From Felis catus (lineage: Eukaryota), in the NCBI RefSeq assembly GCF_018350175.1, contig NC_058368.1, forward strand, positions 78,618,001-78,682,000: a stretch of DNA of 64,000 bases, written 5' to 3'. Below the pieces are notes generated by a model. That model did no database searches and had not been told where the DNA came from. It saw only the letters and a program-made list of their open reading frames with translations. Both the position numbers and the translations under genes were made by a program. This document shows, piece after piece, positions 2,247-62,310 of this stretch (position 1 is the stretch's first letter; each line of letters begins with the position of its first letter).

Positions 2247-3371
2247 TTTTTTTTTTCTTTTTTTTTATTATATTTTTTTCAATATATGCAATTTATTGTC
2301 AAATTGGTTTCCATACAACACCAAGTGCTCATCCCAAAAGGTGTCCTCCTCAATACCCATCACCCACCCTCCCCTCCCTCCCACCCCCCATCAACCCTCA
2401 GTTTGTTCTCAGTTTTTAAGAGTCTCTTATGCTTTGGCTTTCTCCCACTCTAACCTCTTTTTTTTTTTTTCCTTCCCCTCCCCCATGGTCTTCTGTTAAG
2501 TTTCTCAGGATCCACATAAGAGTGAAACCATATGGTATCTGTCTTTCTCTGTATGGCTTATTTCACTTAGCATCACACTCTCCAGTTCCATCCACGTTGC
2601 TACAAAAGGCCATATTTCATTTTTTCTCATTGCCACGTAGTACTCCATTGTGTATATAAACCACAATTTCTTTATCCATTCATCAGTTGATGGACATTTA
2701 GGCTCTTTCCATAATTTGGCTATTGTTGAGAGTGCTGCTATAAACATTGGGGTACAAGGGCCCCTATGCATCAGTACTCCTGTATCCCTTGGGTAAATTC
2801 CTAGCAGTGCTATTGCTGGGTCATAGGGTAGGTCTATTTTTAATTTTCTGAGGAACCTCCACACTGTTTTCCAGAGCGGCTGCACCAATTTGCATTCCCA
2901 CCAACAGTGCAAGAAGGTTCGCGTTTCTCCACATCCTCTCCAGCATCTATAGTCTCCTGATTTGTTCATTTTAGCCACTCTGACTGGCGTGAGGTGATAT
3001 CTGAGTGTGGTTTTGATTTGTATTTCCCTGATGAGGAGCGATGTTGAGCATCTTTTCATGTGCCTGTTGGCCATCCGGATGTCTTCTTTAGAGAAGTGTC
3101 TATTCATGTTTTCTGCCCATTTCTTCACTGGGTTATTTGTTTTTCGGGTGTGGAGTTTGGTGAGCTCTTTATAGATTTTGGATACTAGCCCTTTGTCTGA
3201 TATGTCACTTGCAAATATCTTTTCCCATTCCGTTGGTTGCCTTTTAGTTTTGTTGGTTGTTTCCTTTGCTGTGCAGAAGCTTTTTATCTTCATGAGGTCC
3301 CAATAGTTCATTTTTGCTTTTAATTCCCTTGCCTTTGGGGATGTGTCAAGTAAGAGATTGCTACGGCTGAG
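2247..3371 (-). mobile_element. Young 5'-truncated L1 (ORF2 C-terminus, 3'UTR, polyA)
   Basis: ORF 2505-3383 is an uninterrupted L1 ORF2 C-terminal region (CWRGCGE...HCWWEC). Perfect TSD ACACCCTGCCATCTTTT at 2234-2250 and 3372-3388, at a TT/AAAA site. Confidence 0.97.
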
Positions 3372-3869
3372 ACACCCTGCCATCTTTTAACAAATGTGTT
3401 GGAATCCATCACTGGGTGACTGGCTCCGATTTACCTGTACCTGTCCCCCGATGGGATACTTGGGGACAGAACACCCTTCCAGAGAACTCTAGAACTTAAT
3501 GCATCTCGTAGTGTTCTTTGGCACAGTCCCTGTCACTGGATTAATTTTCTTAGGCACTCCCAGCCCAGTTGCTGAAAAAATGATAGGTTTGCACCAGCAC
3601 TGGCCTGATATAAATGATTCTGGTGAGCTCCTTGGAAATACTCAGGCATGCGCTGTGTGGGATCCTTGTGCAAGAAGGAGGCTGAAGCCGTCATTAGTGA
3701 GCATTGTTCTAAATCAAAATTTCTGTAATGTGAGGCAGAGGAGTTAAGACGAATATTTCTTGATTCTTTATGATCAGTTATGGATTGCATTTGCTGAAAG
3801 ATAAGCCACGATGACTTCTGGTTCATATAGATCAAAAAAGTAGTGTATTCCTTTCTGGACTTTGAACTC

Positions 3870-4543
3870 AAAAAAAAATTTTTTTTTAATATTTATTTTT
3901 GAGAGAGAAAGGCAGGGTGCGAGTGGGGGTGGGGCAGAGAGAAAGACACAGAATCTGAAACATAAACTAGAATATAAACAGCTGTCAGCTCAGAGCCCGA
4001 TGCAGGGCTCAAACTCACAGACCTCAAGATCATGTCCTGAGCCAAAGTCAGACGCCACCTAGGCACCCCTAGACTTTGAACTCTTTTTCTTTTTAATGTT
4101 TATTTTTGAGAGAGAGAGGTAGATAGACAGAGACAGAGAGAGAGAGACAGAGAGAGGCAGAGAGAGAGGGAGACACAGAATCCGAAGCAGGCTCTGGGCT
4201 CCAAGCTGTCAGCACAGAGCCCGACGTGGAGCTCGAACTCACGGACTGTGAGATCATGGCCTGAGCCAAAGTTGGACGCTTAACCCACTGAGCCACCTAG
4301 GCACCCCTAGACTTTGAACTCTTTTTTTTAAGGTTTATTTTTGAGAGAGATAGGGAGAGAGAGAGAGAGAGAGACAGAGAGACAGAGAGAGGCAGAGAAA
4401 GAGGGAGACACAGAATCTGAAGCAGGCTCCAGGCTCTGAGCCATCAGCACAGAGCCCAATGCGGGGCTTGAACCCATGAACTGTGAGATCATGACCTGAG
4501 CCAAAGTCAGGCACTCAACCGACTGAGCCACCCTAGGGGCCCC
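3870..4543 (-). mobile_element. Three tandem CAN SINEs (3870-4069, 4084-4307, 4322-4543)
   Basis: Three antisense SINE bodies separated by a repeated GACTTTGAACTC flank. Confidence 0.93.
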
Positions 4544-5431
4544 TGAACTCTTTTAAATAGGTTAAATCTATATATTTCATGGGCATTTTGACTGCCTGAA
4601 TAATTCTGAAATATAAATATGCAAGTCCTGACTTCTCTTGAGAATTTGTTCTTCCTGCCCCTCTCCTCTCCTTTTTAGTTAACTTTAGTTGTTTTACATG
4701 TAGAGCTTTATTTCTTTCAGTGGCCAGTCGCAGAAGCCTGGACTGTCACATCAGAAAATCACAGTTCACATTTCCTGTATTGGCTCTTCATAGGAGTATT
4801 AGGCTTGTTTAATTTATTCCACGAAGTTGAATGGAGTAATGGAACCAAGCCAGATGTACCAACCCCAACGTGACTAGAAAAAAGTCTGGGTCTCACGCGG
4901 GTTACGAGGGGTCTGACTCGGAGCCCCAATTGGGCTTTTCCTTTCTCGCTCTCGCTCTCTCTCTTTTTTTTTTTTTAGGTTTTCTCAAAGACAGTTTTGA
5001 ATATCCCACAAGATTACACTCCCAAGGGCTCAACAAGGACCGCAGTTAAGGCGGTGACATGCTTTTAGCGGAAGGCTAGTCGGCCTCTGCTCACCCTGCT
5101 CCCTGGACTCTGGGCCAGCCTCTGGTCTCTCTAATCACGATGCGGGCAGAGCCCTGCTCCACCTGCTGGGCTGTTTGGACACACGACAAGGACTTGGCCC
5201 CAAGCAGCAAGCAGCCTCTGATCCCTCCAATAAACAAAGCTGCCGATGGTCACACCTCCTCTCCCCTCCCCTGACCCCCTCCACTCCATTCTGGCGGGCT
5301 CCTCTGGCTGGTAAACCTTTAAACTTGATTTACTGTGTCGACTTTGATGTGCATCAGGCTGGAGTCTCTGGGTGTTTCTGGAGCTAAAAAGTAGCGCACA
5401 AGTCAGAGTTCTTTACAGATTCAAGTCTTCA

Positions 5432-6650: not shown

Positions 6651-7947
6651 GACAATGGCTTTTAAAAAAAGGTAAGAGCCACCATTTATTGACGGTGCCC
6701 AGCACTGTTGGTCCTTTATATGCATCGTCTCATTATACGCTTACAACAGACTTATCCGTTAGGCATTTTTGTTACTTGAAATGCATGTATGTCACAATGG
6801 AACATACCATAGTTAAAATAAACCACATGATACCGAGGGGCTCATGATAAAAATCTGTGATCTCGCCCATAATGTGTTCACTTAGTTTTGCACAGGAAAG
6901 AGGTGCATTTATTTCTGTTTTTAATTCTTGGGGGAGATACCTCCAGACTCCTAACAATATGCCATGACCGCACTTATTTTATTTGGGCACCGTCTGCTGC
7001 TGTCCTGCTCCTTGGGGTGAGGATTTAGCTCATCCTATGCCATCATTTTTGCTGTCCTCCGTCGATCTGCCTTCCCCCCCGCTCAGCTTAATGTACATGT
7101 ACTATTATTGTTAGTTTTTCCTGGTCAGTCACCTGGGTCACCTCAAAACCATACCTAAACCTTTGTTTATTATTCTGTCGATACACATGATATTTTTTAT
7201 CTCCCCGTTTTGCAACCTGCTGTTGTTCGCTCCCCCATGTTTTCCTGAAGTTCTTTCTCTCCTCTGTTTTCCAGTCTCTGTCCGCCATACCTTGATTTTG
7301 ATCAGCTTGAAGTATATGAAGTTGCCGATAGGCAGTTGCTTTTGGTCGACAAAAATGGCGTGTTCGTAGCAGACATATGGTACATTGCCTTTCGTAACCA
7401 CTGTTAAGTTTTCCACCTCTATGGGATGGTTTTAAAATGGAAATCCAGTGAATATTATTGATAATGTAATGACTATATGTGTATTTTTAGAAACATACAC
7501 ATATACATATGTGTAGAAACATATGTATATGTTTCTACATATACATATTATGTTTAGAAACATAAAGGAGTTTGCCTCCTCCTTTATGGGCCACGTACCT
7601 TCTTTACTTGAGCGTGGATTGTCCTTTTGAACAGGCCACCATTTTCTTATCGAGAGACACCGTTGCTGCACCTTGGAAAGTACCAGGCATGTACTCAGTG
7701 CTGCTTGTAGTATCGTAGTCGTTAGCCTTTAGTAGATGGCTGGATTCGGGAGAGAAATGACGAAGGTGGGCAGTGACCAGTATCAGTGTTCCTTCCATTT
7801 ATTGATTCTGCAGGTATTTGTTGGTCACCTACTGTATGCTGGCATTTTGTAGAAGAATACATGAGACACAGGTGCCTGGCTTCAAGGAGATGATACCCTA
7901 CTGTTAGTCGTTTCATGGGTTGCTACAAAATAAACTGGAGTGATTGG

Positions 7948-8315: not shown

Positions 8316-8782
8316 TTGTTTTTTTTTCTTCTTAAAAAATTAAAAAAAAATTTTAATGTTTATTTTTGAGAGGCAGAGAGAGAAAGAGACACAGAGTGTG
8401 AGTGGGTAGTGACAAAGAGAGAGGGAGACACAGAATCCAAAGCAGGCTCCAGGCTCTGAGCTGACAGCACAGAGCCTGACGTGAGCCTCGAACTCATAAA
8501 CCATGAGATCATGACCTGGGTTGAAGTTGGATGCTTAACTGACTGAGCCACCCAGGCACCCCTAAAATTTTTTTATTAATGTTTATTTTTGAGAGAGAGG
8601 GAGAGTACAAGCAGGGGGAGGGACAGAGAGAGAGAGGGAGACACAGAATTTGAAGCAGGCTCCAGGCTCTGAGCTGCCAGCACAGAGCCCAACGCAGAAC
8701 TCAGACTCACGAACCATGAGATCATGATCTGAGCTGAAATCAAGAGTTGGACACTCAACTGACTGGGCCGCCCAGGAGCCCC
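8316..8782 (-). mobile_element. Two tandem CAN SINEs (8316-8562, 8563-8782)
   Basis: Two antisense SINE bodies. Confidence 0.93.
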
Positions 8783-9030: not shown

Positions 9031-10465
9031 ATTTTTCTTTTTTTATATTAAATATAATTTATTGTCAAATTGGTTTCTCTACAACACCCAGTGCTCATCC
9101 CAACAGGTACCCTCGTCCGTGCCCATCACCCACTTTCCCCTCCCTCCACCCCCCATCTACCTTCGGTTTGTTCTCAGTCCTTCAGAGTCTCTTATGGTTT
9201 GCCTCCCTCCCTCTCTGTAAATTTTTTCCCCCTTCCCCTCCCCGCTGGTCTTCTGTTAAGTTTCTTGGGATCCACATATGAGTGAAAATATATGGTATCT
9301 GTCTTTCTCTGCCTGACTTATTTCACTTAGCATAATACCCTCCAGTTCCATCCATGTTGCTGCAAATGACAGGATTTCATTCTTTCTCATTCTCTGTATG
9401 ACTTATTTCATTTAGCATAATACCTTCCAGTTCCATCCACGTTGCTGCAAATGGCATGATTTCATTCTTTCTCGTTTCCAAGTAGTATTCCATTGTATAT
9501 ATATAAACCACATCTTCTTTATCCATTCGTCAGTTGATGGACATTTAGGTTCTTTCCATAATTTGGCTATTGTTGAAAGTGCTGCTATAAACATTGGGGT
9601 ACGAATCCCCCGTGCATCAGCACTCCTGAATCCCTTGGGTAAATTCCCAACAGTGCTATTGCTGGGTCATAGGGCAGTTCTACTTTTAATTTTTTGAGGA
9701 AGGTCCACACTGTTTTCCAGAGCGGCTGCACCAATTTGCATTCCCACCAGCAGTGCAAGAGGGTTCCCGTTTCTCCACATCCTCACCAGAATCTATAGTC
9801 TCCTGACTTGTTCATTTTAGCCACTCTGACCTGCATTAGGTGGTATCTCAGTGTGGTTTTGATTTGTATTTCCCTGATGAGAAGTGACATTGAACATCTT
9901 TTCATGGGTCTGTTGGCCATCCGATGTCTTTTTTGGAAAAGTGTCTATTCATATCTTCTGCCCATTTCTTCACTGGATTATATGTTTTTCAGGTGTGGAG
10001 TTTGGTGGTTTCTTTATAGATTTTGGATGCTAGCCCTTTGTTTGATATGTCATTTGCAAATATCTTTTCCCATTCCATTCTTTTAGTTTTGTTGATTGTT
10101 TCCTTTGCAGTGCAGAAGCTTTTTATCTTCATGAGGTCCCAATAGTTCAGTTTTGCTTTTAATTCCCTTGCCTTTGGAGGTGTGTCGAGTAAGAAATTGC
10201 TGCAGCTGAGGTCAGAGAGGTTTTTTCCTGCTTTCTTCTTTAGGGTTTTGATGGTTTCCTGTCTCACATTCGGGTCCTTCATCCAGTTTGAGTTTATTTT
10301 TGTGTGTGGTATAATAAAGTGGTCTAGTTTCATTCTTTTGCATGTTGCTGTCCAGTTCTCCCAGCACCATTTGTTAAAGAGACTTTTTTCCATTGGATAC
10401 TCTTTCCTGCTTCATCAAAGATTAGTTGGCCATACATTTGTGGGTCCAATTCTGGGGTCTCTATT
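9031..10465 (-). mobile_element. L1 3' portion (non-inverted arm of an inverted L1 insertion)
   Basis: 3'UTR plus frameshifted ORF2 C-terminal peptides ([22 protein letters not shown]). Confidence 0.95.
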
Positions 10466-16363: not shown

Positions 16364-16565
16364 TCCAGTATCCCACAGTTTCTAATGCCCCACAATGACC
16401 TAATGCCCCATAATGTCCTAATAACCATGGTGTTCTGATGCCCCATGATGTCCTAAAACCCCACAATGTCCTGATGCCCCTTGTTCTTCTGATGCCCCAC
16501 CATGTCCTGATGCCCTACTGTGTTCTGATGCCCCACGATGTCCAAATGCACCACCCCGTTCTGAC
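16364..16565. repeat. Degenerate 18-bp minisatellite, about 11 copies, consensus YCTGATGCCCCAYRATGT
   Basis: Units start at 16381, 16399, 16417, 16434, 16452, 16470, 16488, 16506, 16524, 16542. Confidence 0.9.
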
Positions 16566-46589: not shown

Positions 46590-46813
46590 ATATTTTTTTA
46601 AATTTTTTTTCAACGTTTATTTATTTTGGGGACAGAGAGAGACAGAGCATGAATGGGGGAGGGGCAGAGAGAGAGGGAGACACAGAATCGGAAACAGGCT
46701 CCAGGCTCTGAGCCATCGGCCCAGAGTCTGACGCGGGGCTCGAACTCACGGACCGCGAGATCGTGACCTGGCTGAAGTCGGACGCTTAACCGACTGCGCC
46801 ACCCAGGCGCCCC
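46590..46813 (-). mobile_element. Young CAN SINE (CpG-intact subfamily)
   Basis: CGACTGCGCCACCCAGGCGCCCC head; TSD TTTATTTTTATAT. Confidence 0.95.
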
Positions 46814-47151
46814 TTTATTTTTATATTTTAAGTTTTGATCCTTGTAAAAGTTAATGTATGGTGTGGTGTGAGATGAAAGTCACCCCCTTCTATTTCTATA
46901 TGCGTCACATCCACTGAATTCTAATTCCATTTTTGTCATATTTTAATTCCAAAATGTCCTTGCATAAATTTCTAGTTTCTGTTCAGTTACACTGATCTAG
47001 TTGCTTCGTTCACGAGCATACTGTTCTGATTTTTAAAATATTTTGTTAGGTGTTCTCAAATACTTATGTTTTCATTCAGTATTAAATTGTTCAACTAATC
47101 TGAAGTGAAAAAAAATTCTCAAGCAGGTTTAAAAAAAATCACCTTGCAATC

Positions 47152-47154
47152 AAT

Positions 47155-47197
<43 letters not shown>

Positions 47198-47399
47198 TTA
47201 TTTTAAATGTTTATTTATTTTTGAGAGAGACAGAGAACAGGGGAGGGGCAGAGAGAGAGGGAGACACAGAATCTGGAGCAAGCTCCAGGCTCCGAGCTGT
47301 CAGCACAGAGCCCGATGCGGGGCTCGAACTCAGGGACCATGAGATCATGACCTGAGCCGAAGTTAAGACGCATAACCTACTGAGCCACCCAGGTGCCCC
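47152..47399 (-). mobile_element. CAN SINE with (TTTA)n tail
   Basis: ACCTTGCAAT on both sides. Confidence 0.94.
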
Positions 47400-47430
47400 A
47401 TACCTTGCAATTTAAATTTTGTAATCTTAG

Positions 47431-47707
47431 TTTTTTTTTAATGTTTATTTATTTTTGAGGCAGGGAGAGACAGAGCATGAATGGGGGAGGGTCAGAGAGA
47501 GAGGGAGACACAAAATCCGAAACAGGCTCCAGGCTCTGAGCTGTCAGCACAGAGCCCGACGCGGGGCTTGAACTCACAGACCGCAAGATCATGACCTGAG
47601 CAGAAGCCGGATGCCTAACTGACTGAGCCACCCAGGTGCCCCAAATTTTGTAATCTTAGAATAAGATCTGTAGATCAATAGCACCTACGATTCTACTAAA
47701 ATTAGTT

Positions 47708-47740
<33 letters not shown>

Positions 47741-48085
47741 CAGAGAAGTTCTTTTAACATGAGTATCAGATCAGGTTACTCGTCTGTTCAGCCAGTGGTT
47801 GATTCTTTTTTTTTTTTTTAACGTTTATTTATTTTTGAGACAGAGAGAGACAGAGCATGAATGGAGGAAGGTCAGAGAGAGGGAGACACAGAATCTGAAA
47901 CAGGCTCCAGGCTCTGAGCTGTCAGCACAGAGCCCGACGCGGGGCTTGAACTCACAGACCGCAAGATCATGACCTGAGCAGAAGCCGGATGCCTAACTGA
48001 CTGAGCCACCCAGGTGCCCCAAATTTTGTAATCTTAGAATAAGATCTGTAGATCAATAGCACCTACGATTCTACTAAAATTAGTT

Positions 48086-48116
<31 letters not shown>

Positions 48117-48397
48117 CAGAGAAGTTCTTTTAACATGAGTATCAGATCAGGTTACTCGTCTGTTCAGCCAGTGGTTGATTCTTTTTTTTTTTTTTAACGT
48201 TTATTTATTTTTTGAGACAGAGAGAGACAGAGCATGAATGGAGGAAGGTCAGAGAGAGGGAGACACAGAATCTGAAACAGGCTCCAGGCTCTGAGCTGTC
48301 AGCACAGAGCCCGACGCGGGGCTCAAACTCACGGACCAGGAGATCATGACCGGAGCCGAAGTCGGCTGCTTAACCGACTGAGCCACCCAGGCGCCCC
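47431..48397 (-). mobile_element. Three CAN SINEs (47431-47642, chimeric 47806-48020, 48182-48397)
   Basis: First has TSD AAATTTTGTAATCTTAG. The middle copy is a hybrid of the outer two. Confidence 0.93.
47519..48273. repeat. About 378-bp direct tandem duplication (47519-47896, 47897-48273)
   Basis: Copies appear identical except for T-run lengths. Confidence 0.93.
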
Positions 48398-48649
48398 TAA
48401 AATTAGTTTTAATACATAGCACAACTGTTCTAAATGGATACTTCTCTTTATAACAGAATTGATAATATATGAGTATTTATATAAGAATTATAACAATGAT
48501 TTAATATCTTATGAACACTGCTTTATTGAATGTTATGGAAATGAAAGAAAACATGAATAAAGCTCTCATACTAGTGATAATCTAGGACCCCTCAACCTAA
48601 CACAATTAAGAAAAAGATAGAAATTAAATATGCTGCTGAAGGTAAATCT

Positions 48650-48867
48650 TTTTTTTCCCAATGTTTATTTATTTTTGAGAGAGAGAGCGAGCCAGAGCAT
48701 GAGTAGGGAAGGGGCATAGAGACAGAGAGAGGGAGACACAGACTGAAGCAGGCTCCAGGCTCTGAACTGTCAGCACAGAGCCTGATGCGGGGCTTGAACC
48801 CATGAACCGCGAGATCATGACCTGAGCCAAAGTCAGACGCTTAGCCGACTGAGCTACCCAGGCATCC
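48650..48867 (-). mobile_element. CAN SINE
   Basis: Antisense body. Confidence 0.93.
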
Positions 48868-60257: not shown

Positions 60258-60494
60258 TTTTTTTTTATTTTTAAAAAAAAATTTTTTTTTCAACGTTTAT
60301 TTTATTTTTGGGACAGAGAGAGACAGAGCATGAACGGGGGAGGGGCAGAGAGAGAGGGAGACACAGAATCAGAAACAGGCTCCAGGCTCCGAGCCATCAG
60401 CCCAGAGCCCGACGCGGGGCTCGAACTCACGGACCGCGAGATCGTGACCTGGCTGAAGTCGGACGCTTAACCGACTGCGCCACCCAGGCGCCCC
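60258..60494 (-). mobile_element. Young CAN SINE
   Basis: CpG-intact; TSD CCCCCACTTTTTTTT. Confidence 0.95.
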
Positions 60495-62083: not shown

Positions 62084-62310
62084 GGGGCGCCTGGGTGGCG
62101 CAGTCGGTTAAGCGTCCGACTTCAGCCAGGTCACGATCTCGCTCGCGGTCCGTGAGTTCGAGCCCCGCGTCGGGCTCTGGGCTGATGGCTCAGAGCCTGG
62201 AGCCTGTTTCCGATTCTGTGTCTCCCTCTCTCTCTGCCCCTCCCCCGTTCATGCTCTGTCTCTTTCTGTCCCAAAAATAAATAAACGTTGAAAAAAAATT
62301 AAAAAAAAAA
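62084..62310 (+). mobile_element. Young CAN SINE
   Basis: GGGGCGCCTGGGTGGCGCAGTCGG head; GTCTTCTC on both flanks. Confidence 0.95.

Follow-up and report, generated by a model that had tools for sequence, protein, structure and literature searches.

The question raised by this locus of the cat genome is whether a tRNA-derived SINE took some of its 3' flank along when it was retroposed. The TSD of a full-length SINE on the minus strand (hereafter, SINE B) encloses more than the element itself: an A-run, a segment of 65 bp and a second, longer A-run also lie between its two copies. The first-pass annotation interpreted this arrangement as a SINE-mediated 3' transduction. We analyzed the locus within the whole stretch of 64,000 nucleotides that contains it (hereafter, the window), and we slightly favor a different reading, in which a 5'-truncated poly(A) RNA was later put by L1 into the tail of SINE B with a TSD composed of A only. 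We give this reading a probability of about 0.4; this figure, like our wording of the strength of the other readings, is a weighing of the evidence items and was not computed. Statements on published work refer to the accessible portions of the papers that we cite.

The anatomy of the composite insertion is real. We verified the exact 11-bp TSD pair (TAAAATTAGTT at 48075-48085 and 48398-48408), and the order of the parts on the minus strand inside this pair is the one that had been described: SINE, a run of 14 A, the 65-bp segment and a run of 30 A (Table 1). The word does bracket the insertion on both sides, but a third copy of it exists. A single extra base (48086) stands between the outer A-run and the tail-side TSD. 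When the TSD is read from the L1 endonuclease site (TT/AAAA), it is 13 bp long with one mismatch. The probability of an 11-mer matching by chance inside 330 nt is about 2e-4 to 5e-4. The composite presents the marks of TPRT, with a TSD in the range of 7-20 bp, a TT/AAAA cut site and a 3' A-tail.

Table 1. Coordinates of the composite SINE B insertion, of SINE A and of the tandem duplication that joins them
Feature	Positions	Strand	Remarks
SINE A TSD, tail side	47414..47430		17 bp, exact match to 47643-47659
SINE A	47431..47642	-	Full-length CAN SINE, A9 tail; donor of the head of the chimera
Duplication unit, copy 1	47569..47946		378 bp
SINE A TSD, head side	47643..47659		17 bp
Third copy of the 11-bp TSD word	47697..47707		Product of the duplication
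Duplicated outer A-run, A32	47709..47740	-	
Duplicated 65-bp segment	47741..47805	-	Identical to 48117-48181
Chimeric SINE	47806..48020	-	SINE B tail half joined to SINE A head half
Crossover block, 50 bp	47897..47946		Lies in the chimera; same sequence in SINE A (47519-47568) and SINE B (48274-48323)
Duplication unit, copy 2	47947..48323		377 bp
Third copy of the SINE A TSD word	48021..48037		Product of the duplication
TSD of SINE B, tail side	48075..48087		Exact over 11 bp (48075-48085); the 13-bp form has its single mismatch at 48086
Outer A-run, pure A30	48087..48116	-	
65-bp segment	48117..48181	-	Non-repetitive
Inner A14	48182..48195	-	TT precedes the run
SINE B body	48196..48397	-	Full-length felid CAN SINE, not subtype IIB
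TSD of SINE B, head side	48398..48410		Flush with the SINE B head; outer edge is the L1 endonuclease TT/AAAA site, minus strand

One TSD pair encloses both SINE B and the segment, and the own tail of SINE B presents no visible TSD. At the inner tail, the longest match to a word flush with the head is 3 nt, and a TSD of SINE B at that position was rejected on this ground. Exact TSDs of at least 10 bp were found for 16 of the 36 head-bearing SINEs of the window. Among 14 of these, a set that leaves out SINE B and the chimeric SINE of Table 1, TSD lengths range from 10 to 19 bp and the TSD lies 205-249 bp from the head, compared with 312 bp for SINE B.

The earlier account of the locus overlooked that the segment, the A-run and the TSD word were duplicated in tandem. 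The segment had been called unique; it has an identical second copy, and the two duplication units differ solely in the lengths of two homopolymers. The distance between SINE A and SINE B, now about 756 bp, was 378 bp before the duplication. All diagnostic substitutions of the chimeric SINE are those of SINE B in the tail half and those of SINE A in the head half, with one switch between them, and one homopolymer length of the tail half agrees with SINE A. The locus therefore presents the marks of a homologous TE-mediated tandem duplication: a chimeric full-length element and a single junction within shared homology. This is also the junction pattern by which homologous TE-mediated rearrangements are defined in the accessible part of PMC9675761 (Balachandran et al.). 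The likeness to the Alu-Alu type of that study extends to the same orientation of the two SINEs, and the 378 bp of the duplication fall in the reported range of 93-25,425 bp; the differences are that the elements are CAN SINEs and that the identity block spans 50 bp, against a median of 16 bp for Alu.

This duplication of 377-378 bp through a crossover between SINE A and SINE B probably occurred in the animal rather than as an error of the assembly. It is younger than both SINE insertions and very recent, unless the assembly joined the sequence at two similar SINEs. The window contains no N letters, and no other duplication of at least 95% was found in it besides three pairs of young SINEs. 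The surrounding 2.3 kb (46612-48866) hold six SINEs, one of them the product of the duplication, all on the minus strand.

We assigned SINE B to the felid subfamily II of CAN SINEs by resemblance and by alignment with 17 copies of the window. It presents a tRNA-like head with A and B boxes, a (TC)n tract, AATAAA repeats and an A-tail, and it gave a weak tRNA match in Rfam at 48308-48392, below the gathering score. The youngest subtype, IIB, is Felidae-specific, is under about 5 My old and is marked by a T>G change in box A and a one-base indel near position 51 (PMC4084570). Placing these published positions on the motifs of the window by inference, we found both marks in 3 of 18 window copies and neither of them in SINE B or SINE A. 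The copies with both marks speak for a felid as host. The three IIB-type SINEs (46612-46813, 60292-60494 and 62084-62289) are 3-7 differences apart in 202 sites, retain 15-17 CpGs and have tails interrupted by A/T; they are candidate polymorphic insertions.

SINE B differs from the local majority at 14 of 201 sites. Eight of these differences are near-private (common to at most one of the 16 other copies), and one of the eight is a C>T change that abolishes the CpG of box B. The C of this CpG matters for Pol III. The private changes of the IIB-type copies relative to each other number 1, 2 and 5. Judged by its substitutions, the body of SINE B looks aged, with the reservation that the 16 comparison copies may miss its subfamily and that apparently private changes could then be subfamily marks. 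The outer runs A30 and A32 are the longest A/T runs of the window, among eight runs of at least 14, and none of the 34 other SINE tails reaches A20 (median of 8). In dog, long tails are retained in only about 3% of an old subfamily (PMC9599045, section 3.3).

The 65-bp segment is a complex sequence with a GC-content of 41.5%, and the tandem-repeat scan made no call in it, which excludes a degraded A-tail or a microsatellite as its origin. A self-BLAST of the 64-kb window with the segment recovered only the duplicate, with matches of at most 14 bp otherwise. Rfam returned eight matches in 47400-48600 (E up to 5), none of them in the segment and all below the gathering score; an snRNA or snoRNA stub finds no support from this search. 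No Pol III terminator (T4 or more) occurs in the body or in the segment from the head of SINE B to the 3' end. The lack of TTTT in the segment, in the sense of the SINE, had been reported and is correct, but it says little since 6,487 of 9,838 65-mers of the window (66%) also lack TTTT. In the same sense, the segment begins with GA after the A-run. Seven of the 14 window TSDs, two of which share one target, begin with these two nucleotides, compared with a background of 12% (118 of 958).

These parts could have been assembled in three steps. SINE B would have inserted through L1-primed reverse transcription at TT/AAAA, giving the 13-bp TSD, and would then have aged. We infer that the L1 endonuclease later cut the TT/AAAA site made by the own tail of SINE B, where a 5'-truncated polyadenylated RNA, such as an mRNA end or an orphan L1 transduction, would have been inserted. 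The TSD of this second insertion would be the inner A14, hidden since it is all A, and the resulting order (SINE, A14, 65 bp, A30 and TSD) would mimic a transduction. Finally, SINE A and SINE B would have crossed over through their homology, which would have produced the tandem copy and the chimeric SINE.

Several observations argue for such an insertion into the tail of SINE B. The ages of the parts do not agree, as a SINE with eight near-private changes is found next to the longest A-runs of the window, and its TSD, taken from the endonuclease site onward, is imperfect at one base. A later insertion would account at once for an old SINE body, a TSD with a mismatch and a young tail. The inner A14 starts at TT/AAAA, its length falls within the local TSD lengths and it is close to the nick spacing of 15-16 bp. 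According to Levy et al. (PMC2836564), insertions into an A-linker show little or no visible TSD; in that case too, TT/AAAA opens an A-run of about the length of a TSD, although the insert was another SINE and is a non-repeat sequence here. At least 2 of the 36 SINEs of the window (those at 4130 and 8378) are located at the tail of another SINE or at its TSD. The A30 also fits the end of a separate RNA in that no terminator remnant precedes it and in that it stands 83 nt beyond AATAAA.

Other observations speak against this later insertion into the SINE B tail. Pol II 3' ends usually bear AATAAA or ATTAAA, with the signal expected 10-30 nt ahead of the tail, and the segment contains neither of them. 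The closest word to such a signal is GTTAAA, which ends 12 nt before the outer A-run, and a one-off match at such a position is found in 24% of 9,838 random 65-mers. The segment lacks TTTT, as expected of 66% of segments by chance, and starts with GA, as expected of the TSD of a source SINE. Neither Rfam nor the self-BLAST of the window yielded a source RNA for the segment. In addition, the changes of SINE B may be subfamily marks, and subtype IIA still makes species-specific insertions and is active in some lineages (PMC4084570).

The strongest competitor, only slightly less probable, is the 3' transduction itself, which we consider a tentative reading. Pol III would have run past the merely rudimentary TT terminator of a source SINE and transcribed 65 bp of its flank, and the product would have been inserted as one unit, in which case the inner A14 would be the tail of the source SINE. 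The bracketing pattern on which this claim was based does fit, since one TSD flush with the head encloses everything and none is found at the inner tail, but it fits an insertion into the tail with an all-A TSD equally well. An outer T-run (plus strand) with its own TSD had been proposed as the refuting sign; this sign is blind here because a TSD of A only is invisible. The lack of TTTT in the body and in the segment, the lack of a canonical Pol II poly(A) signal and the GA start, which resembles the TSD of a source SINE, are all consistent with transduction. In the accessible text of PMC9599045 (section 3.4), Can copies may terminate within the TSD and then re-amplify, which also points in this direction.

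The route proposed for the transduction, AATAAA-dependent polyadenylation of the Pol III read-through RNA, fits the locus poorly. The segment ends with G directly before A30, with no TT, TTT or TCT(T) terminator remnant, and this end is 83 nt past the last AATAAA of SINE B. For B2, the addition of about 25 nt reduced polyadenylation 2.6-fold (PMC10572872), and in dog the T+ daughters still show remnants of the terminator, T2-3 or TCT, in front of the tail (PMC9599045, sections 3.3-3.4), marks that are absent here. Priming of the RNA at a genomic A-tract downstream of the segment would avoid both objections, and polyadenylation is the less likely variant. What would have to be accepted is that a CAN SINE moved 65 bp of its own 3' flank from an aged source outside subtype IIB and without the terminator-plus-polyadenylation route, a claim that we regard as tentative. 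It demands that an aged copy with a damaged box B was transcribed recently or, failing this, that a pure A30 lasted for the time of eight substitutions, and neither a source nor a sibling was seen in the window. The flush fit of the TSD with the SINE head makes a Pol II transcript across the whole element unlikely.

A chimeric retrocopy is improbable. With a poly(A) RNA as its first template, the L1 reverse transcriptase would have jumped to the A-tail of a SINE RNA, or ligation would have joined the two RNAs, leaving one TSD. The anatomy is that of L1-made chimeras, with a full-length Pol III RNA at the 5' end and an RNA fragment at the 3' end, in the same sense and within a single TSD, and template switching or ligation has been proposed for such sense-oriented chimeras (PMC13174262). 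However, this reading carries two burdens: the RNA donor must be an aged SINE, and no canonical poly(A) signal is present in the 3' piece. Nested insertions can also be mistaken for chimeras, as that paper cautions.

Least probable of all is that the segment belonged to the flank from the start or was captured at the DNA level (as repair filler or by gene conversion), with the TSD match or the outer A-run being coincidental or a product of assembly: the locus was already rearranged once by duplication and the assembly may contain an error here, but the low chance of the TSD match, the endonuclease site and the flush fit at both ends argue against coincidence. Sequencing runs of two studies contain 13 of 15 sampled 31-mers of a 180-bp junction stretch, in which 71 of 150 words fall wholly inside the spacer or the segment. 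If sampling is even, this share requires words that span the junctions (P of about 0.002 otherwise), which weakly supports the junctions, given that the sampling rule for run words is uncertain and that one of the runs may be the source of the assembly. Part of the stretch was found in 23 of 24 rows of sequencing runs and half or more of it in 6 of 24 (three studies); rows with shares of 0.27-0.47, which include small runs and three other organisms, are not readable as empty alleles, source loci or expression.

Comparison with known systems helps to place the locus. 3' transduction is standard for L1. The transductions of L1 and SVA share with this locus the succession of element, inner A-run, unique segment and outer A-tail within one TSD; they differ in that they derive from Pol II transcripts that bypass a weak poly(A) signal, whereas SINE B is a tRNA-derived Pol III element. 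Alu is closer, as a Pol III SINE for which TSDs displaced beyond extra sequence have been described, and here the literature is divided. A T2T preprint lists 386 high-confidence 3' transductions among 1,182,410 elements (10.1101/2021.07.12.451456), which favors the transduction reading of SINE B. On the other side, the accessible part of the preprint of Halabian et al., from a dedicated search, reports none confirmed among 118,489 AluY elements; of its 633 candidates, the 24 that had a putative source turned out to be mutated A-tails (10.1101/2024.04.29.591526); this favors the later insertion into the tail.

The explanation given for these false Alu cases does not apply to SINE B, whose segment is a complex sequence rather than a degraded A-tail. 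SINE B further differs from Alu in that AATAAA is present in CAN SINEs, whose transcripts can receive a poly(A) tail, and its 65-nt segment is near the cut-off of 70 nt used for Alu. The Can SINEs analyzed by Kosushkin et al. (PMC9599045) resemble SINE B in their AATAAA repeats, rudimentary TT terminator and A-tail; their daughters reach no further than a terminator located within the TSD, with T2-3 or TCT left as remnants, and capture of a 65-nt flank is not described in the accessible sections. Our literature search, which covered few subscription papers and no supplements, found no report of 3' transduction by carnivore, CAN or other tRNA SINEs. Two canine papers (PMC13756887 and PMC12458276) treat 3' transduction for L1 only in their accessible parts, and the string "transduc" gave no match in the accessible text of PMC8466645.

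We also surveyed the wider window. A Pfam scan of 20 of the 96 listed open reading frames gave one weak match, below the cut-off, and identified no host gene. This match (E = 0.0076) lies in an AT-rich open frame of the minus strand (7088-7486) that has a CxxC...C motif close to the start; as a guess, this frame is possibly a remnant of a DNA transposon. An open frame of 293 codons (2505-3386, minus strand) has no Pfam match, and we take it to resemble the C-terminal end of L1 ORF2. Within L1-like sequence, 9305-9473 contains a tandem duplication of 85 bp (91% match), and a minisatellite with about 10 copies of an 18-bp unit (71% match) is found at 16380-16564. Two head-to-tail SINE pairs, in each of which one SINE lies at its partner's tail or TSD, occupy 4054-4544 and 8378-8782.

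The duplication is a small textbook case of SINE-SINE crossover; it leaves three copies of each TSD word and would mislead programs that call TSDs automatically. If SINE B received a later insertion in its tail, as we slightly favor, the event is an ordinary one, and it exemplifies a class of false positives whose second TSD consists of A only and which TSD-based screens for transduction can therefore not reject unless orthologous alleles are available. If SINE B is instead a transduction, it would be a daughter copy of a Pol III SINE with a sequence tag attached, a clean case of a process that is unconfirmed for AluY and one that bears on the disputed point of Alu (386 events against none confirmed). 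The tag would then name the source SINE locus and would offer a route to the active SINE source loci of carnivores. Should such transductions be common, they would allow parent-offspring mapping of the SINEs of cat and dog.
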